Part shown: positions 8,215-63,618 of the stretch, piece after piece
Position numbering within the stretch: the first letter of the stretch is position 1
How the letters are laid out: the number at the start of each line of letters is the position of its first letter
Assembly (NCBI GenBank): GCA_041660605.1
Contig: JBAZWB010000002.1
Coordinates: forward strand, 239,940-303,939
Direction of reading: 5' to 3'
DNA from: Patescibacteria group bacterium
GTDB taxonomy: Bacteria; Patescibacteriota; Patescibacteriia; UBA10025; JAHIVO01
Length of the DNA: 64,000 nucleotides
The notes under the pieces: generated by a model
What the model was told of the DNA's origin: nothing
What the model saw: the letters and a program-made list of their open reading frames with translations, nothing else
Database searches by the model: none
Position numbers and translations under genes: made by a program

Positions 8215-8799
8215 ATGAAAAAAGCACTCATTCTACTTGTAGCCTGCCTTGCTATTGGTATTTCGGCTGGCTGGACGTCACCCATTCAAGCGGAGAATAC
8301 GCTTAACGCCAAATTGCTGCTGCACGGGGTGCAAAAAGACACATCGAGTCACTGGGGCAAGGATGGATGGTTTATCCTGCCGAATCCCGGTTCAAAAACT
8401 ACCCCAGTCGTAGCCGTAGCTGGTCCCAGATATAGCCAGTCAAATTGGTGGTTGGAATTAAACCTTGGCGTTTTTGGTAAAGAAAGCAAAGCCGAAGCGC
8501 TCCTGGACGTTCGCGCCTCATACGACCTCACTGCCAAGTGGAATGTCTGGGCCAACGTTGAATACTATGGCACCTCCAAGAACTTGTATGTCTACCTTGA
8601 TGCAACCCTTAAGCTGGGCAGCATCGGAAGAATCGGCCTGGAAACCGAGAACATGCTCTACGGCGACCATCAGGTTGATGATTACGGTTACGGCCCGCGA
8701 ATCGTCGTCCCCTTTGGCAGCCAATTCAAATTGATTGGCGCCTACCAGTTCCATCCTGGATTGGACAAGATCTGGGCCAGGGTAGTAATCGATTTCTAA
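8215..8799 (+). CDS. Secreted protein with a signal peptide (possible small beta-barrel/OMP-like; C-terminal Phe)
   Basis: N-terminal MKKALILLVACLAIGISAG signal sequence. Alternating amphipathic strands. Terminal ...VIDF. Confidence 0.5.
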   Translation: MKKALILLVACLAIGISAGWTSPIQAENTLNAKLLLHGVQKDTSSHWGKDGWFILPNPGSKTTPVVAVAGPRYSQSNWWLELNLGVFGKESKAEALLDVRASYDLTAKWNVWANVEYYGTSKNLYVYLDATLKLGSIGRIGLETENMLYGDHQVDDYGYGPRIVVPFGSQFKLIGAYQFHPGLDKIWARVVIDF

Positions 8800-8926
8800 C
8801 TCTCCAACTCAATCCGGCAGAGAGATCCTAAAAACTTCTCTCTGCTCTTTTTCCCTGACACTGTTTCATTAAACGGCGGCAGAGAAAAATAAAAATGGAA
8901 CACTAGACAATTTAAGGAGCAATTAG

Positions 8927-9436
8927 ATGAACGACCTGCGTGGACTCAGTGCCGCCAATAAAGTGGCAGTGGCAGAGCTAATGGAAGCTGAATTTCCCGA
9001 AAATTTAATCGTGGAGATCAGAGATGTGCTGATTAAATGCATCCGTTACGATCACTCTCAAAACCGGATTCCGTATGATGAAAGTATCTTCAGCAGTAAG
9101 ATTGGCCTTTTCGAACTGGCTCTGACGTATCAGGATGTGCTTTGTTTCTTGATGAGGATGGCGAATCATTGGGAAGCGAGATTCCCAAAAAACCTAGGAC
9201 CGGTTTTCGCCTCCCAAGCCAAAAAAGAGCTTGCCAGACAATTCCCAAAAATTAGTCCTCATAATCATATCCGGCTTGACGGCAGAGATAGCTTGAGGAA
9301 GTTCTTCGCAACCACCAGAGAACTCGGTAAAATAGTGCCATTTAATCTCAACTTAGCCGGGAATCCAAACGCCAACCTAATCCGTGTCAATATTGCTAGC
9401 TGCCTAAAAATCGACAGTAAATACGTATGTGCCTAA
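8927..9436 (+). CDS. Hypothetical protein
   Basis: 169-aa ORF with an RBS. Followed by a repeat-family terminator. Confidence 0.4.
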   Translation: MNDLRGLSAANKVAVAELMEAEFPENLIVEIRDVLIKCIRYDHSQNRIPYDESIFSSKIGLFELALTYQDVLCFLMRMANHWEARFPKNLGPVFASQAKKELARQFPKISPHNHIRLDGRDSLRKFFATTRELGKIVPFNLNLAGNPNANLIRVNIASCLKIDSKYVCA

Positions 9437-9534
9437 CTCCTTATCCGCACCTTTGAACTCGCGCAGAGAGCTTAAAAACTCTCTGCCCTTTTTCCCCAGC
9501 ACTCAAATATCTTTGGGTAGCGGAGAAAAAGTAA

Positions 9535-9963
9535 ATGATAGCCCATAAGGAGGATGGAGTGGAAAAATCCAACCAACCAGCGAAGGCGCCGACGAATAGT
9601 AAATACCTTGCCCGCTTGTACCTTTTTTCGTCTACTAGCGATTTTCTGGGGGGAAAGCCCTACGCTTACGGCACATTCGTCATGTCGGGTGCCCCTAATA
9701 AAAGCTCGTACCTACCAGCCAAATTTGGGAAAGGCGGCTCGTTAGCACTTACCTTATCCATTTTTCAGGTGATTGTTGGGCTCGTTACGGACGACGAAGG
9801 AGAAGAACACCTCTTGCCAAAAATATGCTGTACCGTAAAGGAGTTTGATCATGTCGGATGGAACAGTAAACAAGCCCACGCTAGTTTACGTGAGAAATTC
9901 ATGAGCTCAATTCCAGAAACACCAGGTTGGTCAATGGGAAAACCGCCGGAGTGGAAATGGTAG
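9535..9963 (+). CDS. Hypothetical protein
   Basis: 142-aa ORF. Followed by a repeat-family terminator. Confidence 0.35.
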   Translation: MIAHKEDGVEKSNQPAKAPTNSKYLARLYLFSSTSDFLGGKPYAYGTFVMSGAPNKSSYLPAKFGKGGSLALTLSIFQVIVGLVTDDEGEEHLLPKICCTVKEFDHVGWNSKQAHASLREKFMSSIPETPGWSMGKPPEWKW

Positions 9964-10091
9964 GCACAATACGTTTGCGCCTATCTCCCGAACCGCACCC
10001 GCGCAGAGAGCCTAAAAACTCTCTGCTTTTTTATTACGATAAAAAAGAGGCAGGTCTTCGTGACCCACCTCAAAAATGGAAAAATAGTTGC

Positions 10092-11204: not shown

Positions 11205-11361
11205 TACATACCTCTCTTGTTTGAATTGTGAAAAATTTACTGTTTCTGTCTTTATTATGTTTATATTACTTTAACTAATGAGTGCCACGCTGTCAAACAG
11301 CAAAAACCACCAATACAAAAAATCCCTACTCGTTGTACGGAGTGGTATGGATGTATTTCTT

Positions 11362-11640
11362 TTATCAGTGGGCGCAGATGCCCCGCACCATCTCGTTTCA
11401 CTCGAGGTGCGGGATTTCGTCCCCTTCGACTTCGCTCAGGGTCCTCAAGACTCTATTCGTTTTTATCAAAACAAAAATCATCCCCCCACTTTACTTGTCC
11501 CCCGTAGCCCGAATGTAATGGGGGCGAAGGGGGATAAGAGTGGTGCTCTAACTCCCGACCCCGCATGCGGGGTCGAGGATCCCCGAAGTTGTCGAAATCA
11601 TAGATTTCGACAACTTCGGGACAACTGAGTCCCAATGCTC
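11362..11640 (-). pseudogene. Scrambled or disrupted copy of tRNA-Ile(UAU) (att-site scar)
   Basis: Exact repeats of the tRNA 3' end (CAGTGGGCGCAGATG) and D/anticodon-arm segment (ATAAGAGTGGTGCTCTAAC). They are separated by GC-rich inserts. Confidence 0.5.
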
Positions 11641-11706
11641 CGGTCGGAACTATGTATCTAGCCGCTACAAAAATTAAACAGACGACAAATATATTTCTTT
11701 TATCAG

Positions 11707-11780
11707 TGGGCGCAGATGGATTTGAACCATCGACCCCCACTTTATAAGAGTGGTGCTCTAACCAACTGAGCTATGCGCCC
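11707..11780 (-). tRNA. tRNA-Ile, anticodon UAU
   Basis: Cloverleaf: acceptor GGGCGCA/TGCGCCC, anticodon stem CCACT/AGTGG with loop CTTATAA, T-arm GATGG-TTCAAAT-CCATC. Confidence 0.7.
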
Positions 11781-11872
11781 ACTGATAAAACAAATGACAA
11801 TTTAACTTAAAAAACTTATCACAAAAACAGCCAGAAGGTCAACTCATGCCGACTTTAATGACATTATTGGGT

Positions 11873-25568: not shown

Positions 25569-25716
25569 TATCCAATTACTTTTTACATATTATCCCCCTT
25601 CGGGGGATCCCCCGAAGGGGGACTTATAACGAATTACTATTTACTCCCTTTATTTGACGACAAACTAGCGCCGGTGCTATGGTAGAAATATAAATTGCAC
25701 AAACATTGGAGGAGTT

Positions 25717-46987: not shown

Positions 46988-47290
46988 AAGGAGAACTTAA
47001 TTTCCTTTCGGGGAAATTATTGTAGGTCGATGATCAGATTTTATTATCTGATTTTGAAATAATTTTTGACGTTTCTTTCTTATCACCTTTTGGTTGTTAA
47101 ATAATATATACAAATCTACAGCCCAGTAAAATCATGAGTTTGATTTTTACCAAGATATTTAGTACAATATTGACAAACAGGCTGTAGTTTTTTTATTTAA
47201 TAAACAATATACAGGGGCGACTAGCTTCCACCTCCGTCCGCCTGGGGCGGACTTCGGCGGACACGCAGATGGTTATTAAAGCCCAGTGGT

Positions 47291-47367
47291 GGGCGACTAG
47301 CTCAGATGGTTAGAGCGCGTCACTGATAATGACGAGGTCTCAGGTTCGATTCCTGAGTCGCCCACCA
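47291..47367 (+). tRNA. tRNA-Ile (GAU) with encoded CCA
   Basis: Acceptor GGGCGAC/GTCGCCC, anticodon loop CTGATAA, T-arm GGTTCGATTCC. Confidence 0.85.
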
Positions 47368-47573
47368 CTGGGGTCTATAAAGCTTGCCTACCCCTCAGAG
47401 TTGAACAAAACAAGGCGAGCAGGGTTTAATGTCAGGTTCCCCCGCCACAATAAATTAAATGAACTAAAGTGGAGCGGGGTCCGCCTCCCATCGGGCCTGA
47501 GAGGCCTCAGGGCCTCGAACGGCTGGCGGAGATTCCTGAGTCGCCCATTTGAAAAAAACAATTCGCTCCAATA

Positions 47574-47897: not shown

Positions 47898-47938
47898 GAA
47901 TAATATAATTATTATTTTCAAATGCCGAAGATATTTGT

Positions 47939-48010
47939 GCCGAGGTAGCTCAGTGGTAGAGCGAAGGACTGAAAATCCTTGCGTCGCCAGTCCGATTCTG
48001 GCCCTCGGCA
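47939..48010 (+). tRNA. tRNA-Phe (GAA)
   Basis: Acceptor GCCGAGG/CCTCGGC, anticodon loop CTGAAAA, T-arm GCCAG-TCCGATT-CTGGC. Confidence 0.85.
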
Positions 48011-48035
48011 TTTGAGAATAATTTCGTGATTAAAA

Positions 48036-48190
48036 AATGCAGCTCAGTGGGCCGAAGCCACGAGTGAAGCAAACTGCTTTGCTTCACGAGGAGCTGAGGC
48101 GGGCGAGATGATACGGGAACCGCCATCGAGCCCCGGGAGAGCGAAGGACTGAAAATCCTTGCGTCGCCAGTCCGATTCTGGCTCTCGGCA
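48036..48190 (+). pseudogene. Disrupted second copy of tRNA-Phe with an 85-nt hairpin insert in the D region
   Basis: 48129–48190 reproduces the 3' two-thirds of tRNA-Phe with 1 mismatch. The 5' part (GCAGCTCAGTGG) is separated by a GC hairpin insert. Confidence 0.5.
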
Positions 48191-48497
48191 TAAGTGAAGC
48201 ATTAATAACCCAAACTGAAAATTTTACCCCGTACTTGACGCGAAGCGGCATAGTGCGGGGCCTTGCGTCGCCAGCATGCCCCACGAAGTTGAACGTAGCG
48301 AAACGTAGCGGGGGGGAGACCCGCCCCGCTGACTAGCGGGGTTCTTGAGAACAAATAATAAATCAAATGACGAAATCCCGCCGCATGGCGGGATGGCCCT
48401 CGACATCTTCAGGGGCTTGCTTTTGTTGTGGGATAAACTATACTATACTGAAACTATATTAGATAAACACTAAACTTGAGTATATATTTCCCCTTAT

Positions 48498-50455: not shown

Positions 50456-50754
50456 CGGGGTGTAGTTCAGTTGGCTAGAACGCTCGCTTCTTGCCCCGCC
50501 CCAGGTACAGGATTGCGCTCTTAATAAAAAATTATAGAGAAATATATTCAGGTCGGGGTGTAGTTCAGTTGGCTAGAACGCTCGCTTTGGGAGCGAGAGG
50601 TCCGCGGTTCGAGTCCGCGCACCCCGACCTGAATATGTTTTTAAAACCCTGGTGGCGGGGTGAAGGAGCGAGAGGTCCCCGGTTTCCCGCCACAAATATT
50701 TAATCTAATGTAGGCGGGACCCCGCCGAATGGCGGTGGCGAGTCCCTACCTGCC
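50456..50754 (+). pseudogene. Outer, disrupted tRNA-Pro copy enclosing the intact gene
   Basis: 5' half (50456–50491) and 3' half (GGAGCGAGAGGTCC ... CGCGCACCCCGACC at about 50651–50754) of tRNA-Pro. The intact tRNA and GC hairpins lie between them. Confidence 0.45.
50554..50627 (+). tRNA. tRNA-Pro (UGG)
   Basis: Acceptor CGGGGTG/CACCCCG, anticodon loop TTTGGGA, T-arm CGCGG-TTCGAGT-CCGCG. Confidence 0.85.
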
Positions 50755-50797
50755 AGTAGGCAGTCGCGCACCCCGACCACTCAATAAAACCAATAGT

Positions 50798-51222: not shown

Positions 51223-51400
51223 ATAAACACGCGCGGGTATCGTATAACGGTATTACCTCAGCTTTCTCCCGAAAAATAAGGAGCGAAGCGACTATATTTT
51301 TCGGGATCCTCGCAACAAGATGGGCTTGTTCCACCCTCCTCATCGTTGCGGGACAAGCTGATGACAGGGGTTCTGCGCCATAGGTACACCCGCCTTTGGC
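51223..51400 (+). pseudogene. Disrupted copy of tRNA-Gly(UCC) with an 88-nt insert in the anticodon loop and a diverged T-arm
   Basis: 5' part identical to the intact gene through CCTCAGCTTTC. Then an insert, then AAGCTGATGACAGGGGTTC. Confidence 0.5.
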
Positions 51401-51455
51401 GGGGAACTCATTAAATAAAAAATTTATATAGTTAATTCCCATAGAGCGGGTATCG

Positions 51456-51519
51456 TATAACGGTATTACCTCAGCTTTCCAAGCTGATGACAGGGGTTCG
51501 ACTCCCCTTACCCGCTCCA
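51456..51519 (+). tRNA. tRNA-Gly (UCC) with encoded CCA
   Basis: Acceptor GCGGGTA/TACCCGC, anticodon loop TTTCCAA, T-arm AGGGG-TTCGACT-CCCCT. Confidence 0.85.
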
Positions 51520-51636
51520 TGGGAATTAAAACTTAAAAGCATCCTTACCCGCTCCAATATCAAACTTTCCGATTTTTTTGGCGGAATGCTATTCTGAAAT
51601 ATATTATAAAAATTTAAAATCTGATATAATCCATAT

Positions 51637-52687: not shown

Positions 52688-53039
52688 CCCAAAAACATAT
52701 CACATTATCGGAATGAGTCCCGGTAATAATTATTTCAAAGATGAAGAAGTTCATTATCTTTTGAAAACTGTCGTTGAGCGATATTCGGCGGCGGAAAAGC
52801 GAGGGCGGGAACTTAATAATATTTCAAGATCCTCACCCCGTCATTCGACGAGGTCCGCCTTTTGCGGTGACTCTCGAGATCAATTAATATAATCAAATGA
52901 CGAGATCCCGCCCTGGTGGCGGGACCCTTACCCGCTCCAACGGAAAATCAATTTAATAAGTTATCCCCAGTCAATCTCTTGACCGTTTTTTGATTATTAT
53001 TTATTATTATATCGTATTACGATATAGTATATATTTCCT

Positions 53040-56344: not shown

Positions 56345-56460
56345 GCCAGGTAGCCCCGCCCGCCTTGCTCCGCAACGCGGAGCGGGCGTGGCAAGCCCCC
56401 GCCAGTAGGCGGGGTAAAATCCAGGCAGTGGTCTGTCCCGCCAAGGGGCGGGACCCCGCA
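56345..56460 (+). pseudogene. Disrupted copy of tRNA-Cys with GC hairpin inserts in the D loop and anticodon loop
   Basis: GGCCAGGTAGCC, a 68-nt insert, AGGCAGTGGTCTG, an insert. All collinear with the intact tRNA-Cys. Confidence 0.5.
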
Positions 56461-56523
56461 ATACATTAGAAAAAATATAAGAGTGCGGGACAAAACCAAA
56501 ATATACGGCACCCTGAAAGTAAT

Positions 56524-56713: not shown

Positions 56714-58252
56714 TCATAGCCACGCGCGGGGGTAGTTCAGTGGTAGAACGCTTCCTTGCCAAGGAAGAGGTCGCGGGTTCAAGTCCCGTTCCCCGCTCCA
56801 ATCGGAAAATTTGAATTTTTCAGCGGCGCAAAGCCACTGATTAGATAATGAAATTAGGGCTTTCCCGCCAACGAGGCGGAAGTTCGAGCCAATTTTTTGT
56901 ATAAAATTTCTTTTTGCTTCTAAATTTTCTTGTTTTGATGTAAAAGGGGCTTGGTGAGCGTCTAATATCCATTTTCTGAAGAGTTCGAGCCGAGCGTCGC
57001 CCTTATTCTTAAAACTATCCAGTAATTCCTTAATTTCAACCAGCCGGTTGACGATTTTTTGTTTGGCTTTGTCAAATACCTCTTTAGAAATTCCTTGGTC
57101 TAATCTCTCATCAAGCAGTAGCAATAGTTTTTCCTCTAATTTAGCTTGCTCGCCTTTTAACGCCTGAATTTCCTCGCCATGCTTAGTTGTTGCTTCTTTG
57201 ATTTCCCCGTCAACCTTAATTAACATTTTGTCTTTCCAATCATCAGGCAGGGCGACGCTCTCAATGGTTTTATTGATCTGGCTGACCAAGTGCCTTTCTT
57301 CAATGAACTTCTGCGAGCAAACCACATTTTTCTTGGTACAGCGATAATAAACATATTTCAACCCTGAAGGTTTTTTCTTTCTTTCGGCAGTTACCATGCG
57401 TCCGCACTCACCACAGGTGAATACGCCCCGGAATGCGAAAGGCAGAAGGTCTTTTTTAACCCTGGTCTTTCGTTTGGCCGAGTGAACCTTCTGCACTTCG
57501 TCAAATAACTGCTTGGTAATTATCGGCTGGTGACTGCCCTGGTACATTTCGCCCTTGTGCAAAAATACGCCGTAATAAAACGGATTGGTCAGCATGTCTA
57601 CTAGCTTGGAAATGACGATTTGCTTATTTGTCCTACGGCTCACCAAGCCCAGCGAAAGCGACAGCTTCTGCAGTGAATAAATCGTGTGATTGCCCCCGGC
57701 ATACGCCTCAAAGAGCTTTTTGACTATCTGCCAGCGCTCCGGGTCTTTGATGATGGTGTGGTGCCGTAATTCGTTCAGATAGCCGACAGGCGCGAGCGCT
57801 GGCCATTCGCCCCGGCGGAGCTTTTGGCGTATGCCGCGTTTGATATTTTCGCATAAGTTATCAATGTAGTATTTGCTCTGGCCAAAAGCGATATTAAGCA
57901 TGAATTTTCCCTGTGGCGTGGCATCAAACCAAAATGTAGGAAATTTTAAACCGCCAATCTTGCCAGTATCCACCATAAAAATGATTTTTCCGCCGTCAAT
58001 GCTGTTTCTGGCCAATCTGTCCGGATGCCACGCCAAAATGCCCATAGGGCCATTTTCTTCTATGCGCTTGATCATTTTATTAAAAAGAGGACGACCGGGC
58101 ACTTTGGCCGTCTTGCTTTCTATGTATTCGTCAATTACTTCTAAATTTTCCTTAATCGCAAATTCTCTTAATTCCGTTATTTGCGATTCAATGGATAAAA
58201 CCTGCCGGTCGTCCTCGTCAGTTGATTTCCTGGCGTAGATTACATATTTCAT
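56714..58252 (-). CDS. Large serine recombinase (resolvase/invertase N-domain, recombinase domain, zinc ribbon)
   Basis: N-terminal YARKSTDEDDRQVLSIESQ with the catalytic Ser. Downstream recombinase domain with CGECG...YYRC zinc ribbon. The 3'-terminal roughly 170 nt runs through IR-A and antisense tRNA-Gly, so the true C-terminus is uncertain. Confidence 0.85.
   Translation of the reverse strand: MKYVIYARKSTDEDDRQVLSIESQITELREFAIKENLEVIDEYIESKTAKVPGRPLFNKMIKRIEENGPMGILAWHPDRLARNSIDGGKIIFMVDTGKIGGLKFPTFWFDATPQGKFMLNIAFGQSKYYIDNLCENIKRGIRQKLRRGEWPALAPVGYLNELRHHTIIKDPERWQIVKKLFEAYAGGNHTIYSLQKLSLSLGLVSRRTNKQIVISKLVDMLTNPFYYGVFLHKGEMYQGSHQPIITKQLFDEVQKVHSAKRKTRVKKDLLPFAFRGVFTCGECGRMVTAERKKKPSGLKYVYYRCTKKNVVCSQKFIEERHLVSQINKTIESVALPDDWKDKMLIKVDGEIKEATTKHGEEIQALKGEQAKLEEKLLLLLDERLDQGISKEVFDKAKQKIVNRLVEIKELLDSFKNKGDARLELFRKWILDAHQAPFTSKQENLEAKRNFIQKIGSNFRLVGGKALISLSNQWLCAAEKFKFSDWSGERDLNPRPLPWQGSVLPLNYPRAWL
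56726..56800 (+). tRNA. tRNA-Gly (GCC) with encoded CCA; integration target
   Basis: Acceptor GCGGGGG/TCCCCGC, anticodon loop TTGCCAA, T-arm GCGGG-TTCAAGT-CCCGT. Confidence 0.85.
56795..56886. repeat. IR-A, left copy (92 bp, perfect)
   Basis: Reverse complement equals 58329–58420. Confidence 0.9.
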
Positions 58253-58328
58253 AGTTGTCGCTTTCGCTTAATTCTTATCAGTCAAAATTGGCTACCCCGC
58301 GGGAGCGGGGTGTTCCGCAATGCGGAGC

Positions 58329-58420
58329 CGAACTTCCGCCTCGTTGGCGGGAAAGCCCTAATTTCATTATCTAATCAGTGGCTTTGCGCCGCTGAAAAAT
58401 TCAAATTTTCCGATTGGAGC
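58329..58420. repeat. IR-A, right copy (92 bp)
   Basis: Perfect inverted match to 56795–56886. Confidence 0.9.
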
Positions 58421-58560
58421 TGCTTTTACCGAAAAGTTCGGACTTTCTTTCTATGAATTCAGGCGGGCGGAAGGGGGGTCTGGGGGGAATTCCGCCCGCC
58501 TGCCCTCTCCGCAAAAAAATTAATTAAATGGGCTTTTAAAAAAACAAGGAGATTTTTCGT
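58415..58560. repeat. IR-B, left copy (146 bp)
   Basis: Reverse complement matches 63473–63618 with about 5 mismatches. Shares the TGGAGC core with IR-A. Confidence 0.85.
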
Positions 58561-58652
58561 AATCCCGCAGAAGCGGGATGCGCCGCGTTAAGGATAGCCC
58601 TTGACCCTCCCACCCGTTCGCAGGCATTTACTCCCTGAAATCAGGATATTCT

Positions 58653-58680
58653 AATTTTGAATATTCATATTTTGAATATA
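58653..58680 (+). promoter_or_regulatory. Candidate operator: two direct TTTTGAATAT repeats with an internal GAATATTC palindrome upstream of the XRE gene
   Basis: TTTTGAATAT at 58655–58664 and 58670–58679. Confidence 0.4.
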
Positions 58681-58690
58681 TCATAACCTT

Positions 58691-58909
58691 ATGGATAAGA
58701 CAATATATCTGAATAAATACAAACGAATTGTCGAAAAGCTTAAAAGTGCCCGTCTTGAAGCAGGATTAACGCAAAAACAAATAGCAGACAGGCTAAAGGT
58801 GCCACAATCGTATATATCCAAAGTTGAAGCAGGGGACCAAAGAATCGATATTATTGAGCTAAAAGCATTTGCCGATCTTTATAAGAAATCGATCACTTAC
58901 TTTATTTAA
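58691..58909 (+). CDS. XRE/Cro-type helix-turn-helix transcriptional regulator
   Basis: LTQKQIADRLKVPQSYISKVEAG HTH_3 signature. Confidence 0.75.
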   Translation: MDKTIYLNKYKRIVEKLKSARLEAGLTQKQIADRLKVPQSYISKVEAGDQRIDIIELKAFADLYKKSITYFI

Positions 58910-59082
58910 TTTCAATCAATAAAAATGGGCGTTTCTATACGCTTTTTTTATTTATCCACAGGGTAAGTGGGTTGACGGTTTATTTTATATGTGATAAGGT
59001 GTAAAGGAATCAATATTCTAGGATATTAATACGATAAATAATCACATAACTTATACCTTAAGAATTAACCTTAAAAACACAT

Positions 59083-59319
59083 ATGAAACCTAAACCGCCT
59101 ACAAATGAGACAAAAAGAGATAGATTCAAGAGACTTGCTGAATACAGGACAAATGAAGTATTGAGTAAATTAAAAATACTTGGTAATTGCTCTAATCAAC
59201 AAGCATATGACTATACTGAAGAGGATATACGAAAAATTTTTGATTCAATTGAAAAAACGACACGAGCCGTAAAATCAAAGTTTCAATTAACGCCTAGGGA
59301 TAAAGAATTTAAATTCTAA
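59083..59319 (+). CDS. Small hypothetical protein
   Basis: 78-aa basic ORF directly upstream of the ATPase gene. Confidence 0.4.
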   Translation: MKPKPPTNETKRDRFKRLAEYRTNEVLSKLKILGNCSNQQAYDYTEEDIRKIFDSIEKTTRAVKSKFQLTPRDKEFKF

Positions 59320-59341
59320 GTGTCTTTTTAAAGTTTATTTT

Positions 59342-61087
59342 ATGTCGTTAAAATTACATATATCTCCAAGAATAATTCCAAGCATTGCCAGTCTATATAA
59401 TGACGTCAATAGAATTTTCATGGAATATATTGACAATTCCATCGACAGTGCTGAAAAATTTTTTACTAATGATATTGATCAGTATTTAAAACCAATTGAG
59501 ATTGTTATTAAAATCTCTGGTGAAAAATTTAGGGACGGAAAAGTAACAATAAGTGATAACTGTTTCGGTATTACAAATTTTGGAAAGGTAGTAGAGAGCA
59601 TAGGTAATTCAGATAAAAAGGCGGATTTTACCACAAACGGACAATTTGGCTATGGCATCTACTCGTATATGGCAGCATGTGAAAAATTAGAAATTACTTC
59701 AAAGCTTGATGATCAAGAAAAGGCACAATACCTGCCCATTGAAAGAAAACAATTCGACACAGATCGCCAAGAAAATGTAAAAATTCCTGATCCAAAAATT
59801 GTAAATTTTAAGATGCAGTCTGGAACAATGATAAGTCTGTCCGGTTTTGAAAAACATTCATGGAAAGAAATAAACGCAGAAGAATTAAAAAATGAGATCG
59901 AAAAACACTTCGAGTTATTATTAGCCAGAAAAAATCTTTTTGTTAAAGTTATTGACGCTAAAATGAACGAACATATATGCAAGCCGTATAATTATTCTCA
60001 ACATGAAGGTGAGGTATATGACGACAATATTAACTCGGTATGTTATAAAAAGGGAATTATATCCCCAACAACTGTCAAATTTAATTTAAAAAAACCAATC
60101 CATATTTATCTTAAACTAACAAAGGGCAAATCAATCAATAAACCACCAATTTTTGTTGCCAAAGGTAGACGGGTGGGCGAGATAAAAGACGTCAGGTCAT
60201 TTAAATCAACCCATAAAAGCGATCTATGGGCACACCCAAATATAACAGGCTATATTGATTTAAATGATTTCTTGGATCCAACTATCGCAAGAAATGATTT
60301 TAAAAATACCGATAAATCAAAAGCGTTATTCGCTACTGTTAACAAATTAGAGGAAATTATTTTAGACGAGATTATAAGGGCTAACAAAGAAGCAGAGGAA
60401 CGACACTATAAAGAGCTAGAGGACAGACTTAACCAAATACTTTCTAAACTTGCAAGAATTGATGCCATGAATTATCGGACTGCATTTTTAACCGGAAATA
60501 ACATTAATTTACAACAAGGCGGTACAGGACAAATAATTGAAGGTAAACGCGGATCAAAAGACCGTGGTGGCGACCCCACAAATGAAAATAATGATCACCC
60601 ATTGGGTGAGAATGAGGGTTTTGGAAAAGGAATTGGAGGATCAAAGGGAAATATCCCTGGGGGTGAGAATGGCGACAATGCTTCGAACAAGGAAGCTGAC
60701 AACCCTTTTGAGGACACCGGATTTAAAGGAGGCGAAAAGAAAAAAAGCGGCTTTAATATAAGGATTGTTGACAGTGATCCCGATATTGATCAAGAAACTA
60801 ATAAACCAATTAGATCTTTACTTGTTGGTGACGAAATAAGAATCTTCAAAAAACATCCGGACTTCGAGGAACGGGTTGGGGAGTCTAGAAAAAAAGAAAA
60901 ACGAATCACAGAGCGTTTAGTCACATACATCGCTGGCGAAATAACAGTTCACTATAAAGACAAATATTTTACCCGATATGGTCAACCAGATTATAATAAA
61001 AAAATGTTTTCAGACTTAGTTGAATTTATTTATTCAATTGAAACATCGCTTGCTGATTTGGTTGGCAGGAACTTGTCTGACTATTAA
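59342..61087 (+). CDS. GHKL-superfamily (HSP90/MORC-like, HATPase_c) ATPase with a long C-terminal region containing a G/N/D-rich linker
   Basis: Bergerat-fold motifs: N box EYIDNSIDSA, G1 box ISDNCFGIT, G2 box GQFGYGIYS. Confidence 0.7.
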   Translation: MSLKLHISPRIIPSIASLYNDVNRIFMEYIDNSIDSAEKFFTNDIDQYLKPIEIVIKISGEKFRDGKVTISDNCFGITNFGKVVESIGNSDKKADFTTNGQFGYGIYSYMAACEKLEITSKLDDQEKAQYLPIERKQFDTDRQENVKIPDPKIVNFKMQSGTMISLSGFEKHSWKEINAEELKNEIEKHFELLLARKNLFVKVIDAKMNEHICKPYNYSQHEGEVYDDNINSVCYKKGIISPTTVKFNLKKPIHIYLKLTKGKSINKPPIFVAKGRRVGEIKDVRSFKSTHKSDLWAHPNITGYIDLNDFLDPTIARNDFKNTDKSKALFATVNKLEEIILDEIIRANKEAEERHYKELEDRLNQILSKLARIDAMNYRTAFLTGNNINLQQGGTGQIIEGKRGSKDRGGDPTNENNDHPLGENEGFGKGIGGSKGNIPGGENGDNASNKEADNPFEDTGFKGGEKKKSGFNIRIVDSDPDIDQETNKPIRSLLVGDEIRIFKKHPDFEERVGESRKKEKRITERLVTYIAGEITVHYKDKYFTRYGQPDYNKKMFSDLVEFIYSIETSLADLVGRNLSDY

Positions 61088-61092
61088 ACTAT

Positions 61093-61962
61093 ATGAACGT
61101 ACAACAATTAATTCAACAAATAACCCCCCTTTACAATAACTACAAAAGGAGAAAGAACAATATTTCTGGGACAGCGGCTCTCGAAATAATGTGGGATATA
61201 GGTGATTTATTAAAAACAAGAATTGATACCGACAGTATTGCTCCACACACATTATACCGAAATATTTATGGCAAATCGGAAGGGAAAGACAACATCACCC
61301 AAAAAAGTTATATAACAAGAGAATTTTTAAGTCGCTCTTACCGAATAAGAAAGTACTTTAGCAATAAAGATCAAATCCAGCAACAGCTACCGAGCCTGAA
61401 AAAATTTATTTTTTTCCGAGAAGCAATGCCGTTTTTTGATAATAAAAAATATAAACTCTCTGGCGATGAAGGAAAAAAATTGATTAATCTATTAAACAGT
61501 AACCTAACGGATAAACAAATACTTTCTTCAATTAAGGTTTTGCAAAAACAAAAAATTAACATACGGAATCCCCGAAGTCAAAAATTACATGAGCTTGAAA
61601 ACGAAAAAGTAATTTTCATCAATTTTTATAATTACATTTATTCATTTTTTAAACATAAAGATTACCGAGCAGCTCAACAACAGTTAGACAATAATCGTAT
61701 TATGCCTAATTATATTAAAGATTTGGCCAGGAATACTAGCTCAATGTCTCAAGATGGGCTAAAAAACTATAACCTACAGATACCACTGATGATCGGAGTA
61801 ATTTGGCAGCAATTCTCTGAAATGGTTAATAACCTCAATAAAGATAGTGATCCTAAAAAACGAAGAAGGTTTAGGAGGCTTATATCACCCGAAAGAATTG
61901 TAAGGCTCGCGGACATGTTATTCGCTCTCACTTCTGAAAATAATTACAAAAACTTTAAATAA
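61093..61962 (+). CDS. Hypothetical protein (operon partner 2)
   Basis: 6-bp gap from the ATPase gene. 289 aa, no recognised motif. Confidence 0.5.
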   Translation: MNVQQLIQQITPLYNNYKRRKNNISGTAALEIMWDIGDLLKTRIDTDSIAPHTLYRNIYGKSEGKDNITQKSYITREFLSRSYRIRKYFSNKDQIQQQLPSLKKFIFFREAMPFFDNKKYKLSGDEGKKLINLLNSNLTDKQILSSIKVLQKQKINIRNPRSQKLHELENEKVIFINFYNYIYSFFKHKDYRAAQQQLDNNRIMPNYIKDLARNTSSMSQDGLKNYNLQIPLMIGVIWQQFSEMVNNLNKDSDPKKRRRFRRLISPERIVRLADMLFALTSENNYKNFK

Positions 61963-61976
61963 TTAATAATAATCAT

Positions 61977-62549
61977 ATGCAAGAAAAAATCGATAGCGAG
62001 TTAAACGCAATTAACAACATTATCAAATCTCTTGAATCTCTGGATGAGGCGGCCAAAAAGCGCGTTCTTAGTTACGTATCAGAAAGGTTGGGTCTAAATA
62101 CTCTAGGCAAGCCCGGATTTTCTAATGAAGTCAAACCCTCTCAAATTAATCAAAATGCTCCAACTGGACAGGATCAAATAATAAATCTGGGGTTAAAAGA
62201 TAGTGTGGTTGATATTAGGACCCTAAAAGATCAAAAATCGCCAAAGACAGCTACACAAATGGCGGCCTTAGTAGCTTTTTATTTACAAGAATATTCGCCT
62301 GAAAATGAACGCAAAGAAATAATAAAGCCACAGGACATAACAAAATATTTTAAGCAAGCGAATTATCCCTTACCCAAAGGAAGACCAATAGTTACACTAG
62401 TAAATGCAAAAAATGCTGGCTACCTCGAATCAGTCGGCGAAAGCGCGTTCAAATTAAACCCGGTTGGCTATAATTTAATTGCCCATCAACTTTCTGAAGA
62501 AAAAAGTAGCGGTAATTCAAAAAGGCAACACAGGGCAAAGAAAAAATAA
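61977..62549 (+). CDS. Hypothetical protein (operon partner 3)
   Basis: 190 aa with a basic C-terminus. Confidence 0.5.
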   Translation: MQEKIDSELNAINNIIKSLESLDEAAKKRVLSYVSERLGLNTLGKPGFSNEVKPSQINQNAPTGQDQIINLGLKDSVVDIRTLKDQKSPKTATQMAALVAFYLQEYSPENERKEIIKPQDITKYFKQANYPLPKGRPIVTLVNAKNAGYLESVGESAFKLNPVGYNLIAHQLSEEKSSGNSKRQHRAKKK

Positions 62550-62551
62550 AT

Positions 62552-63406
62552 ATGGTTTCGTCGATTGCGAAAATCCAAGAAGTACCATTTGACTCCTTTA
62601 AACCCAAGCTAGAAATAATAGAAAAAAAGGTAAAAGGAGTAAAATTTAAACAGATCAATTCAAAGTCTCTTAGACAGGAGATCAGGCAAACGGTACAAGA
62701 TTATTTTAGAAATCTGCGTCTTGAACTGATACAGTACAATTTTTCATTAGACGCATTAGATAGCAATATGCAGGAGCTGTTAAAATTAACAAATGGTAGA
62801 TCCTTGAAAAAAATATATACTACTAAAATAAAAAGTTCTAAAAAGATAATGGAAAACCTGGAAATCGAGCGAGAATACAATTTTAGTAACCCACAGAATA
62901 GAACAAAGTCCCTGCCACTTGATGTTGAATTAAAAATTATTCAGACTTTAAATAATCTTATACCAGCAATTGGGAACTCCTATAAACAGATAATTTCTGA
63001 TTTAAATGACGATAATAGAATCTCTTTTCGTGGAACCACAGCTGAACTCCGTGAAGTTTTAAGAGAGGTTTTAGACAATCTTGCTCCAGACCAAGAAGTC
63101 AAACAACAGAAAGATTTTAAACTCGAGCCGAACACTCATAAACCAACAATGAAACAAAAAGTACGTTTTATTTTAAAGGCTAGAGGACAAAACAAAACTG
63201 AGATGAATACAACTGAAAACACTACCGCCTTAGTTGATGGATCTCAAGAAATGATAGCCACGATTGCAAGATCAACTTATGAAAAAGGATCTGTTGGCAC
63301 TCATACGGATAAAGGATCCCCAAAAGCTAGCTGTAAGCAATATAAAATGTATGTTGATAGTGTTTTATGTGAATTATTGGAAATACATAATTTGCCGATG
63401 AAGTAA
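62552..63406 (+). CDS. Hypothetical protein (operon partner 4)
   Basis: 284 aa. Starts 3 bp after the previous stop. Confidence 0.5.
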   Translation: MVSSIAKIQEVPFDSFKPKLEIIEKKVKGVKFKQINSKSLRQEIRQTVQDYFRNLRLELIQYNFSLDALDSNMQELLKLTNGRSLKKIYTTKIKSSKKIMENLEIEREYNFSNPQNRTKSLPLDVELKIIQTLNNLIPAIGNSYKQIISDLNDDNRISFRGTTAELREVLREVLDNLAPDQEVKQQKDFKLEPNTHKPTMKQKVRFILKARGQNKTEMNTTENTTALVDGSQEMIATIARSTYEKGSVGTHTDKGSPKASCKQYKMYVDSVLCELLEIHNLPMK

Positions 63407-63472
63407 TAATCTGATAAACTTATTCTGATTACCGAAATAGAGCGATAAGCGGCGCGCGCCGTACTCGGCGCC

Positions 63473-63618
63473 ACGAAAAATCTCCTTGTTTTTTTAAAAG
63501 CCCATTTAATTAATTTTTTTGCGGAGAGGGCAGGCGGGCGGAATTCCCCCCAAACCCCCCTTCCGCCCGCCTGAATTTACAAAAAGAAAGTCCGAACTTT
63601 TTGGTAAAAGCAGCTCCA
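63473..63618. repeat. IR-B, right copy (146 bp)
   Basis: Inverted match to 58415–58560. Ends in GCAGCTCCA, a direct repeat of the tRNA-Gly 3' end. Confidence 0.85.

Follow-up and report, generated by a model that had tools for sequence, protein, structure and literature searches.

Broken, hairpin-filled copies of tRNA-Ile(UAU) and other tRNA genes in a Patescibacteria genome and its relatives

Patescibacteria genomes are regarded as streamlined, and to our knowledge bacterial tRNA genes are held to be uninterrupted save for rare group I introns. We analyzed a 64-kb stretch of a Patescibacteria genome (contig JBAZWB010000002.1 of assembly GCA_041660605.1, positions 239,940 to 303,939; hereafter the window), together with about 1.3 Mb of related contigs, and found that an intact gene for tRNA-Ile with anticodon UAU is followed by a broken, insert-bearing copy of itself, for which we use the term ghost. 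Most tRNA genes of the window are shadowed by such hairpin-filled broken copies, and across the clade the intact tRNA commonly lies inside the anticodon loop of its own older copy. These ghosts point to an active process aimed at loop positions of tRNAs. The reading that we prefer, and hold to be probable, is that the tRNA-Ile(UAU) ghost is a dead tRNA copy made by loop-targeting hairpin elements and tRNA-bearing cassettes.

tRNAs were detected with ARAGORN and scored and aligned with the Rfam tRNA covariance model RF00005, and 37 open reading frames (ORFs) of the window were scanned with Pfam. The fetched contigs and loci are labelled L001, L047 and so on, and locus counts for metagenome contigs include some duplicate contigs. 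At metagenome loci, a ghost was recognized by duplicate blocks of at least 11 nt on the same strand, no more than 450 nt from the live tRNA.

A dead copy of tRNA-Ile(UAU)

The locus is organized as follows, in the reading direction of the tRNA:

11781-11795, minus strand: 5' leader arm, pairing with the 3' trailer and lengthening the acceptor stem by at least 10 bp (inverted repeat I2)
11706-11780, minus strand: intact tRNA-Ile, anticodon UAU, loop CUUAUAA, A73 discriminator, CCA not encoded (ARAGORN tRNA-Ile(tat); Rfam RF00005)
11691-11705, minus strand: 3' trailer arm of the intact tRNA, CTGATAAAAGAAATA, complementary to the leader and also duplicated after the ghost
11351-11668, minus strand: the ghost, a collinear non-functional copy of tRNA-Ile(UAU) and its trailer with hairpin inserts (exact collinear blocks, fold)
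11650-11668, minus strand: degenerate 5' acceptor, GTAGCG + GCTAGATA + CATAG, as against GGGCGCATAG in the intact gene (read from the sequence)
11630-11649, minus strand: insert 1, 20 nt, TTCCGACCGGAGCATTGGGA, between tRNA positions 10 and 11, a small hairpin in the fold
11622-11629, minus strand: tRNA positions 11-18, CTCAGTTG (exact match)
11553-11621, minus strand: insert 2, 69 nt, in the D-loop at 18/19, two-hairpin element TCCCGAA..TTCGGGGATCCTCG..GTCGGGA
11534-11552, minus strand: tRNA positions 19-37, the 19-mer GTTAGAGCACCACTCTTAT (exact)
11494-11533, minus strand: insert 3, about 40 nt, in the anticodon loop after A35, hairpin (T)CCCCCTTCGCCCCC..GGGCTACGGGGGACAAG (boundary ±1 nt, shared T)
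11483-11493, minus strand: tRNA positions 37-47, TAAAGTGGGGG (exact match)
11381-11482, minus strand: 102-nt stretch in place of the T-arm, hairpin CCCGCACC..GGTGCGGG (inverted repeat I19)
11351-11380, minus strand: ghost 3' end, tRNA positions 63-75 plus 17 nt of trailer (direct repeat D2/D13, 97% copy of 11689-11718)

To judge from its blocks, the segment 11351-11668 is clearly a dead copy of tRNA-Ile(UAU), duplicated with its trailer and broken at or near loop positions, namely at 10/11, in the D-loop (18/19), in the anticodon loop (35/36) and in the T-loop. The 19-mer given above is present at exactly two sites of the window (11534-11552 and 11744-11762), as is the 27-mer CATCTGCGCCCACTGATAAAAGAAATA (11354-11380 and 11692-11718), with 0 expected in shuffled sequences for either. 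Between the two copies of the 27-mer there is only about 310 nt of non-coding hairpin sequence. A first-pass annotation, made by a model from the letters alone, had described a scrambled duplicate with GC-rich inserts and a perfect hairpin beside the tRNA. Its interpretation stands in part: the anticodon, the disrupted duplicate and the recurrence of the phenomenon are confirmed, the duplicate by the exact 19-mer and 27-mer, whereas the scrambling is not, all blocks being collinear, on the tRNA strand and in tRNA order.

The D-loop and anticodon-loop junctions are precise, with no base lost or duplicated. Insert 2 consists of two adjacent hairpins, TCCCGAA..TTCGGGGA and TCCTCGACCCC..GGGGTCGGGA, and contains two palindromes, a perfect one at 11582-11620 and a second at 11556-11575. 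The former had been noted as a 17-bp hairpin; it is real and 100% complementary with a 3-nt loop, and its arms are in fact 18 nt long (11582-11599 and 11603-11620). Read on the tRNA strand, the segment between inserts 2 and 3 is GTTAGAGCACCACTCTTA, and the hairpin of insert 3 is (T)CCCCCTTCG..GGGGGACAAG. Of the 5' acceptor strand, only CATAG (tRNA positions 6-10) is kept exactly, and in the 102-nt stretch remnants of the T-stem persist (GATG...CATC) while the T-loop is gone. The 3' end, CATCTGCGCCCA, is followed by the trailer of the live gene. Neither ARAGORN nor Rfam finds a tRNA in 11351-11668. Two mechanically called and almost certainly spurious ORFs (11278-11628, plus strand, 116 aa; 11453-11740, minus strand, 95 aa) span the ghost and the tRNA, and could easily enter annotations as hypothetical proteins.

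The live gene and the decoding of AUA

The UAU anticodon in loop CTTATAA, already read as such in the first-pass annotation, is upheld by both ARAGORN and the covariance-model alignment, in which 11706-11780 scores 76.3 bits over the full model (model positions 1-71). This is one of seven tRNAs called by ARAGORN in the window. Its leader and trailer belong to an inverted repeat (I2, 11693-11714 / 11774-11795, 22 nt, 95% complementary) that extends the acceptor stem by 10 strict pairs, or by 15 allowing one mismatch. Pairing of leader and trailer lengthens the acceptor stem by at least 11 bp (11-15 bp) in four of the seven live tRNAs (11693-11795, 47277-47377, 50540-50640 and 51430-51535), and in tRNA-Ile(GAU) it includes the encoded CCA. 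RNase P substrates do not usually have such long pairing, and in the related contigs it is rare, being seen in 10-15 of 197 tRNAs.

Everything in its sequence marks this gene as the working tRNA-Ile(UAU) of a Patescibacteria genome. A 35-nt core of the tRNA recurs unchanged in 96 stretches of metagenome contigs, and the window and all fetched loci give 102 tRNA-Ile(tat) calls, some of them on duplicate contigs. The gene order S1-FtsH-ORF336-tRNA-Ile(UAU) is kept in L047, L049 and L051/L052. ORF336, the neighbour on the FtsH side (336 aa), is identical to a protein of a Patescibacteria MAG (WCV50_05385). For the two flanking genes, the nearest relatives reach only 61-64% identity and all come from Patescibacteria. 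When the AIRS-like neighbour gene was used as a synteny anchor in 44 GTDB genomes, where its relatives are at most 64% identical, no adjoining tRNA-Ile was found; the conserved gene order emerged from the ORF336/FtsH side. The AUA codon is frequent, with 196 of 9307 codons in 20 window ORFs (21.1 per 1000), corresponding to 23% of isoleucine codons and exceeding AUG. Because synteny is kept, the core is identical in 96 stretches and AUA is frequent, tRNA-Ile(UAU) is a fixed and used trait of the clade rather than an oddity of a single genome.

We found no ORF resembling tilS (PP-loop motif SGGxDS) within the 64-kb window, including beside ftsH, no CAU tRNA among the tRNA calls of the window, and no IleRS among the 37 ORFs scanned. 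According to the first-pass annotation, the tRNA would read AUA without lysidine. The fetched loci contain six CAU tRNAs, which resemble elongator or initiator tRNA-Met and share at most 57/74 positions with the body of tRNA-Ile(UAU). Carriage of the tRNA by phages was considered and rejected, as the 35-nt core has no match in IMG/VR.

Bacteria that lack tilS and use an unmodified tRNA-Ile2 with anticodon UAU are known, namely Mycoplasma mobile, Bifidobacterium and Neorickettsia (Taniguchi et al., 2013, PMC3575796). The present case is similar to that of M. mobile in having a genome-encoded UAU anticodon, a reduced genome and frequent AUA (21 per 1000), and differs in that the host belongs to the Patescibacteria and the tRNA is conserved and syntenic. 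The tRNA itself is a further member of the already known tRNA-Ile(UAU) decoders, and represents a stable, clade-wide way to read AUA in a major bacterial radiation.

Ghosts of other tRNAs and recurring insert families

Ghost blocks accompany six of the seven tRNAs of the window. Those other than the Ile-UAU ghost, and the homologues of its insert 2, are:

47215-47275 and 47432-47547: pieces of the Ile-GAU ghost, with the intact gene (47291-47367) between them
48041-48402: two successive Phe ghosts, downstream of the live gene (47938-48011)
50456-50489 (5' half) and 50665-50778 (3' pieces): Pro-UGG ghost, with the intact gene inside the old anticodon loop
51233-51373 and 51543-51556: Gly-UCC ghost, with the intact gene inside the old T-loop
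56344-56498: Cys ghost, upstream of the live gene
51267-51353, 56436-56490 and L051:7432-7487 (inverted): homologues of the two-hairpin element

That the same phenomenon exists in the zone between 47 and 57 kb had been proposed in the first-pass annotation and is verified by five of the six tRNAs other than Ile-UAU; the recurrence extends to many related Patescibacteria contigs. Ghosts had indeed been seen in that zone, while two of their properties had been missed: several intact tRNAs lie inside their own ghosts, and families of inserts recur among them.

The ghosts differ in what they retain. The Ile-GAU ghost has positions 1-12 and 13-22 upstream of the intact gene, split by a 39-nt GC hairpin, and positions 50-57 and 58-74 downstream, split by a 91-nt insert, positions 23-49 being missing. 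The first Phe ghost (48132-48190) still scores 28.9 bits as a tRNA and carries an 87-nt insert in the D-loop. The Cys ghost retains positions 1-41 only (42-75 are missing) and has three hairpin inserts, including a variant of the two-hairpin element at 34/35. The ends of the Pro-UGG ghost insert, CTTGCCCC...GGGGTGAAG, recur in the Pro-CGG ghosts of two distant genomes (L013, L043).

At least two hairpin families occur at several sites, as would be expected of elements like REP (repetitive extragenic palindromic sequences) or MITEs (miniature inverted-repeat transposable elements). The two-hairpin element, TCCCGA..CGGGGATCCTCG..TCGGGA, is present in the D-loop at 18/19 in Ile-UAU, in the anticodon loop at 35/36 in Gly-UCC and at 34/35 in Cys, as well as in inverted orientation at 10/11 in L051; this single inverted copy of a near-palindromic element stands against three in sense orientation. 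The second family, a TCCxCCTTC..GGxGGACAAG hairpin, is found at four independent sites in four genomes: the window and L047 have it after A35, L046 and L051 have it in the D-loop at 21/22, and all four copies are in sense orientation. A third hairpin, AATCAAATGACGARATCCCGCC..GGCGGGA, directly precedes orphan 3' acceptor fragments of Phe (48366-48402) and Gly-UCC (52896-52939); the latter fragment lies 1.4 kb from its live gene, beyond an ORF for a TadA-like deaminase. The stems of the insert families keep their pairing through compensatory changes between copies. No fixed-length target-site duplication and no conserved target motif was found for the hairpin elements, the junctions being precise or overlapping by 0-4 nt. 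Taken together, the breaks are insertions of small GC-rich hairpin elements belonging to families that recur in other ghosts.

A solo perfect palindrome, TCCCCCTTCGGGGGATCCCCCGAAGGGGGA, lies in an intergenic region at 25592-25623 and has a TCCC...GGATCC...GGGA signature like that of the ghost inserts. It is the sole look-alike seen outside tRNA-derived DNA.

Intact tRNAs nested in older copies

In the metagenome loci, ghost blocks are present at 39 of 96 tRNA-Ile(tat) calls (some on duplicate contigs), more than half of the tRNA-Ile(UAU) loci having no ghost. In other Patescibacteria, ghosts also occur at Pro-CGG (L013, L043) and Lys-CUU (L004). At the syntenic locus in L047, L049 and L051, the 5' and 3' halves of an outer copy enclose an intact tRNA-Ile(UAU), and L046 has two ghosts followed by the contig end. 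In relatives, the outer 5' half always stops at ...CTCTTA, after A35, and the piece inserted at nested loci is composed of the intact tRNA and flanking arms that are reverse complements of each other. The most elaborate case is L079 (Ga0172380_10002618), which at about 1900-2500 has three concentric, sequence-identical copies of tRNA-Ile(UAU) in the manner of a Russian doll, with arm pairs that are perfect yet different from each other (gccgaaaatattcagaaccc / gggttctgaatattttcggc and atccaatttttaaaatct / agattttaaaaattggat). Each of its layers is closed by its own perfect arm pair of 18-20 bp, with a small GC hairpin before the 3' half. A different arrangement is seen in L056 (Ga0255346_1000314), where three or more tandem units lie downstream of the intact tRNA-Ile(UAU), each about 150 nt long and starting in the anticodon loop with a 3' half that has diverged (90% identity).

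Several observations bear on which copy is the older. Comparison of a nested locus (L132) with one that has a simple tRNA (L098) shows a common upstream flank leading straight into the outer 5' half, and the same holds for L067 and L068. The outer acceptor stem of L047 is fully paired (GGGCATG/CATGCCC) and distinct from the inner one (GGGCGCA/TGCGCCC), and the outer copy of L114 has a compensated 7:66 pair. The compensated stem of L047 indicates that the outer copy is no randomly decaying duplicate. Inner alleles of the GGGCGCA type seem to group together across species. From flank continuity and from the outer copy having its own compensated stem, the outer copy is the older resident, a former gene at its ancestral position, whereas the inner tRNA and its arms arrived later, in some cases probably from another lineage. 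Outer copies often lack the A73 discriminator. Nesting through a simple tandem duplication of the leader and 5' half was rejected, since the resident leader is not duplicated in the arm that separates the outer from the inner copy. At about 100 loci we found no outer halves more than 500 nt from the live tRNA, and hence no autonomous, ORF-bearing cassette.

Decay of the ghosts

L013 and L043 allow a direct comparison of a ghost with its surroundings. Their flanks are about 97% identical and the inner tRNA-Pro is identical at 75/75 positions, while the 5' part of the ghost is about 10% diverged, tRNA-derived positions included, and about 70 nt of its T-arm region cannot be aligned. At one orthologous locus, a ghost piece is present in L057, L111 and L084 and cleanly absent from L107 and L061. 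Moreover, many ghosts are devoid of essential segments (for instance positions 23-49 in Ile-GAU, 42-75 in Cys, the T-loop and 5' acceptor in Ile-UAU). Based on this divergence, the absence at an orthologous locus, the missing parts, the lost A73 and the many ghost-free loci, ghosts are dispensable, evolve faster than their flanks and are beyond restoration.

One could nevertheless imagine that the ghost functions as a tRNA-derived structured RNA, transcribed together with the live tRNA and acting as a cis processing scaffold, a decoy or a regulator. Its RNA fold (-134.2 kcal/mol) is far better than that of shuffled sequence (z = -6.97), compensatory changes keep hairpins paired between copies, and the syntenic locus of L046, L047, L049 and L051 likewise has a ghost next to this tRNA. 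We nonetheless think such a role improbable: close relatives differ wildly in ghost content, ghosts are missing from orthologous loci as well as from the majority of tRNA-Ile(UAU) loci, and the blocks kept and the sets of inserts vary from tRNA to tRNA. Compensated pairing, for its part, does not require an RNA function, because palindromic mobile elements preserve pairing anyway.

It is very improbable that the ghost is a true multi-intron tRNA gene of the type known in Thermoproteales, from which a protein endonuclease and a ligase would produce a second tRNA-Ile(UAU), and at this locus the idea is already largely refuted. The several precise inserts at non-canonical positions, the related inserts in different tRNAs and the complete identity of the tRNA-derived tracts to the live gene would suit such a gene. 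However, when the inserts are removed in silico ARAGORN calls no tRNA, because it is without the T-loop and the 5' acceptor strand; the tRNA positions of ghosts change freely from one close relative to the next; A73 is often missing from outer copies; and one element is inverted. The bulge-helix-bulge motif (two 3-nt bulges, 4-bp helix) was not seen at the junctions in folds and by inspection, no dedicated scanner having been used: hairpins are stacked directly on stems or form three-way junctions, and the 35/36 junction has by inspection a 3-bp helix with bulges of 1 and 3 nt. Neither EndA nor RtcB was found among the 37 ORFs scanned.

Group I introns were also rejected. The inserts measure only 20-102 nt, as against a core of about 200 nt or more, and Rfam searches of the ghost at gathering thresholds and at permissive E-values gave no tmRNA, group I intron (Intron_gpI), ribozyme or other known RNA beyond chance.

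Finally, an artefact of metagenome assembly at a repeated tRNA might be suspected, as contigs of relatives often end in such regions (L001, L046, L101, L132). This is hardly credible, given that an independent Logan assembly (SRR6484324, L001) has the same ghost sequence base for base, that the inserts are unique sequence rather than collapsed repeats, and that the same architecture is present in assemblies from many samples and assemblers. Ghosts explain contig breaks at tRNA loci, as well as spurious ORF calls there.

Origin of the ghosts

Interruption at loop positions, recurring insert families, entry of a tRNA-bearing piece into a resident gene and fast decay are all clearly indicated by the loci compared here. 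We propose that a resident tRNA gene would be interrupted, most often exactly after anticodon position 35, by a hairpin element and/or by a compact cassette in which mutually complementary arms flank an intact copy of that tRNA. The intact incoming copy would take over decoding, and the interrupted copy, thus freed, would gather further inserts and decay fast. The Ile-UAU locus would then be one case of a clade-wide turnover. We infer, short of proof, that the inserts are non-autonomous mobile DNA and that the cassettes spread between lineages.

A number of points weigh against this scenario. None of the ghosts is linked to a transposase, an integrase or a reverse transcriptase, and neither a reverse transcriptase nor a transposase is among the 37 window ORFs scanned; likewise, there is no autonomous version and there are no outer halves more than 500 nt apart. 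Junctions overlap by 0-4 nt with no fixed target-site duplication, and the ends of the elements are diverse. In spite of four or five insertions, identity between the ghost blocks of the window and the live gene is 100%, which requires a very high insertion rate, a very recent origin or gene conversion. Ghost and live gene have the same orientation at 63 tRNAs, as against five with trivial antisense matches of 11-12 nt. This is not predicted by random DNA transposition and calls for a mechanism that depends on RNA or homology, or else for selection for a common promoter. The argument from inverted orientation consists of one copy of a near-palindromic element, and hairpin-family copies outside tRNAs were gauged in 64 kb only, where the palindrome at 25592-25623 is the one solo look-alike.

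The shared orientation leads to another possible origin, which we consider rather unlikely, whereby a structured RNA would be ligated into a loop-cleaved tRNA, reverse-transcribed and recombined into the gene, the resulting ghost still being non-functional. Candidates for such RNAs are pre-tRNAs closed by leader-trailer helices, or stable GC hairpins. Insertion points do match single-stranded loops (18/19, 21/22, 34-36, T-loop), and junctions are precise without target-site duplication. What keeps this route in play is the co-orientation of ghost and live gene (63 tRNAs against practically none opposite), together with these loop positions and the fact that the cassette corresponds to a tRNA with exactly its paired leader and trailer. 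On the other hand, it is wholly inferential; the window yielded no reverse transcriptase, RNA ligase or anticodon nuclease, L051 has the two-hairpin element in inverted orientation, and positions 10/11 and 12/13 belong to the D-stem and not to a loop. If RNA-mediated insertion of cassettes were true, it would provide a living bacterial model for the origin of tRNA introns and split tRNAs.

As a tentative extension of the scenario of hairpin elements and cassettes, Patescibacteria may harbour an undescribed selfish unit, an arm-closed tRNA cassette that would enter the anticodon loop of the same tRNA after position 35, replace its function and spread horizontally. Repeated insertion of such a cassette would build Russian-doll tRNA genes, and its mechanism might be RNA-mediated, through loop cleavage, ligation and reverse transcription.

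The ghosts might also be regarded as scars of site-specific integrases, left by elements that carried tRNA segments into crossover sites of the anticodon loop or T-loop and were later almost entirely deleted. Breakpoints do fall in the anticodon loop and T-loop, which are classic integrase sublocations in tRNA genes, 3'-end duplicates lie downstream of the live tRNA, and a serine recombinase gene adjoins tRNA-Gly(GCC) in the window. We consider this origin quite improbable, since nothing longer than 500 nt separates the repeats at about 100 loci and inserts also lie in the D-loop and D-stem. Moreover, a single crossover cannot give both upstream 5' halves and a complete tRNA nested between complementary arms. 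Concerning the attachment (att) site duplication that would bound an integrase element, the 3' repeat is present, with neither an integrase nor distant halves at any Ile-UAU locus.

Comparison with known systems

Williams is said to have reported in 2002 on integrative elements that have their target sites in the anticodon loop or T-loop of tRNA genes and bring along the displaced tRNA segment. The ghosts resemble such elements in their breakpoints and in the partial tRNA repeat beside an intact gene. They differ in having no integrase and no cargo, in the small size of the whole structure (less than 500 nt), in the complete, arm-flanked tRNA inside the old gene and in the duplication of 5' halves too.

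Small palindromic repeats of bacteria include REP, BIME and REPIN sequences, Correia elements, Rickettsia palindromic elements and MITEs. The inserts share with REP- and MITE-type elements hairpins of 20-90 nt, conserved ends with variable, compensated interiors and the absence of an ORF. Unlike them, they show no target-site duplication, are strikingly concentrated at loops of tRNA-derived DNA and have no known partner transposase. In the rtT repeats of the Escherichia coli tyrT locus, repeat units downstream of the gene carry the 3' end of tRNA-Tyr, in a manner similar to the tandem repeats of a tRNA 3' segment in L056 and to the trailer repeat described here; rtT repeats, however, are without hairpin inserts, nesting or 5' halves.

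Among eukaryotes, Dada DNA transposons insert specifically into tRNA and snRNA genes (PMC8869645), and are thus likewise mobile DNA specific for small RNA genes. In contrast to the present elements, they are eukaryotic, encode a transposase, rely on multicopy targets and bring no replacement gene.

Within the same phylum, group I introns in Patescibacteria tRNA genes are the subject of a 2025 preprint that we know by its title, given in the reference list of PMC12641178; to the extent that this title tells, it also concerns interrupted tRNA genes. The inserts here differ from group I introns in their length (20-102 nt), in having no Rfam group I or ribozyme match and in that the interrupted copies are non-restorable. 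Thermoproteales archaea have multiple-intron and split tRNA genes and undergo tRNA-intron transposition (Fujishima et al., 2010; Sugahara et al., 2008, as cited in PMC10714607). As far as these systems are presented in the citing article, the ghosts share with them short, GC-rich, structured inserts in the D-arm, anticodon loop and T-loop, with related inserts across tRNAs, and differ in their bacterial host, the absence of bulge-helix-bulge motifs, the non-restorable and decaying nature of the interrupted copy and the constant presence of an uninterrupted one.

Ghosts therefore fail a defining test of archaeal introns, att duplications, REP/MITE elements and rtT repeats alike. In the literature we found no description of ghost or nested tRNA genes in the Candidate Phyla Radiation (CPR) or in other bacteria, the 2025 preprint being known by title only. 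Ghosts represent a bacterial counterpart to the intron-rich and split tRNAs of archaea, and allow ideas on the origin of tRNA introns to be tested.

Other features of the window

A gene for a large serine recombinase (56714-58252, minus strand) abuts tRNA-Gly(GCC) and is bracketed by a perfect inverted repeat of 92 nt (56795-56886 / 58329-58420). Next to it, an inverted repeat of 146 nt and 97% identity (58415-58560 / 63473-63618) encloses about 4.9 kb encoding a helix-turn-helix (HTH) protein, a HATPase_c_3 protein and a predicted pPIWI-associated nuclease. This segment of the region 56714-63618 may be an invertible or integrated defence module.

The segment 45484-47900 contains the 16S rRNA gene, followed by tRNA-Ile(GAU), a MazG-like ORF and tRNA-Phe. 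No tRNA-Ala and no 23S rRNA gene was found anywhere in the window, indicating that the rRNA genes are unlinked.

Finally, at 8215-10032 there are three small ORFs without Pfam match (194, 169 and 142 aa), each of which is followed by a similar hairpin GCAGAGAG..CTCTCTGC (at 8817, 9463 and 10003). The arrangement resembles a short array of paralogues with repeated terminators.

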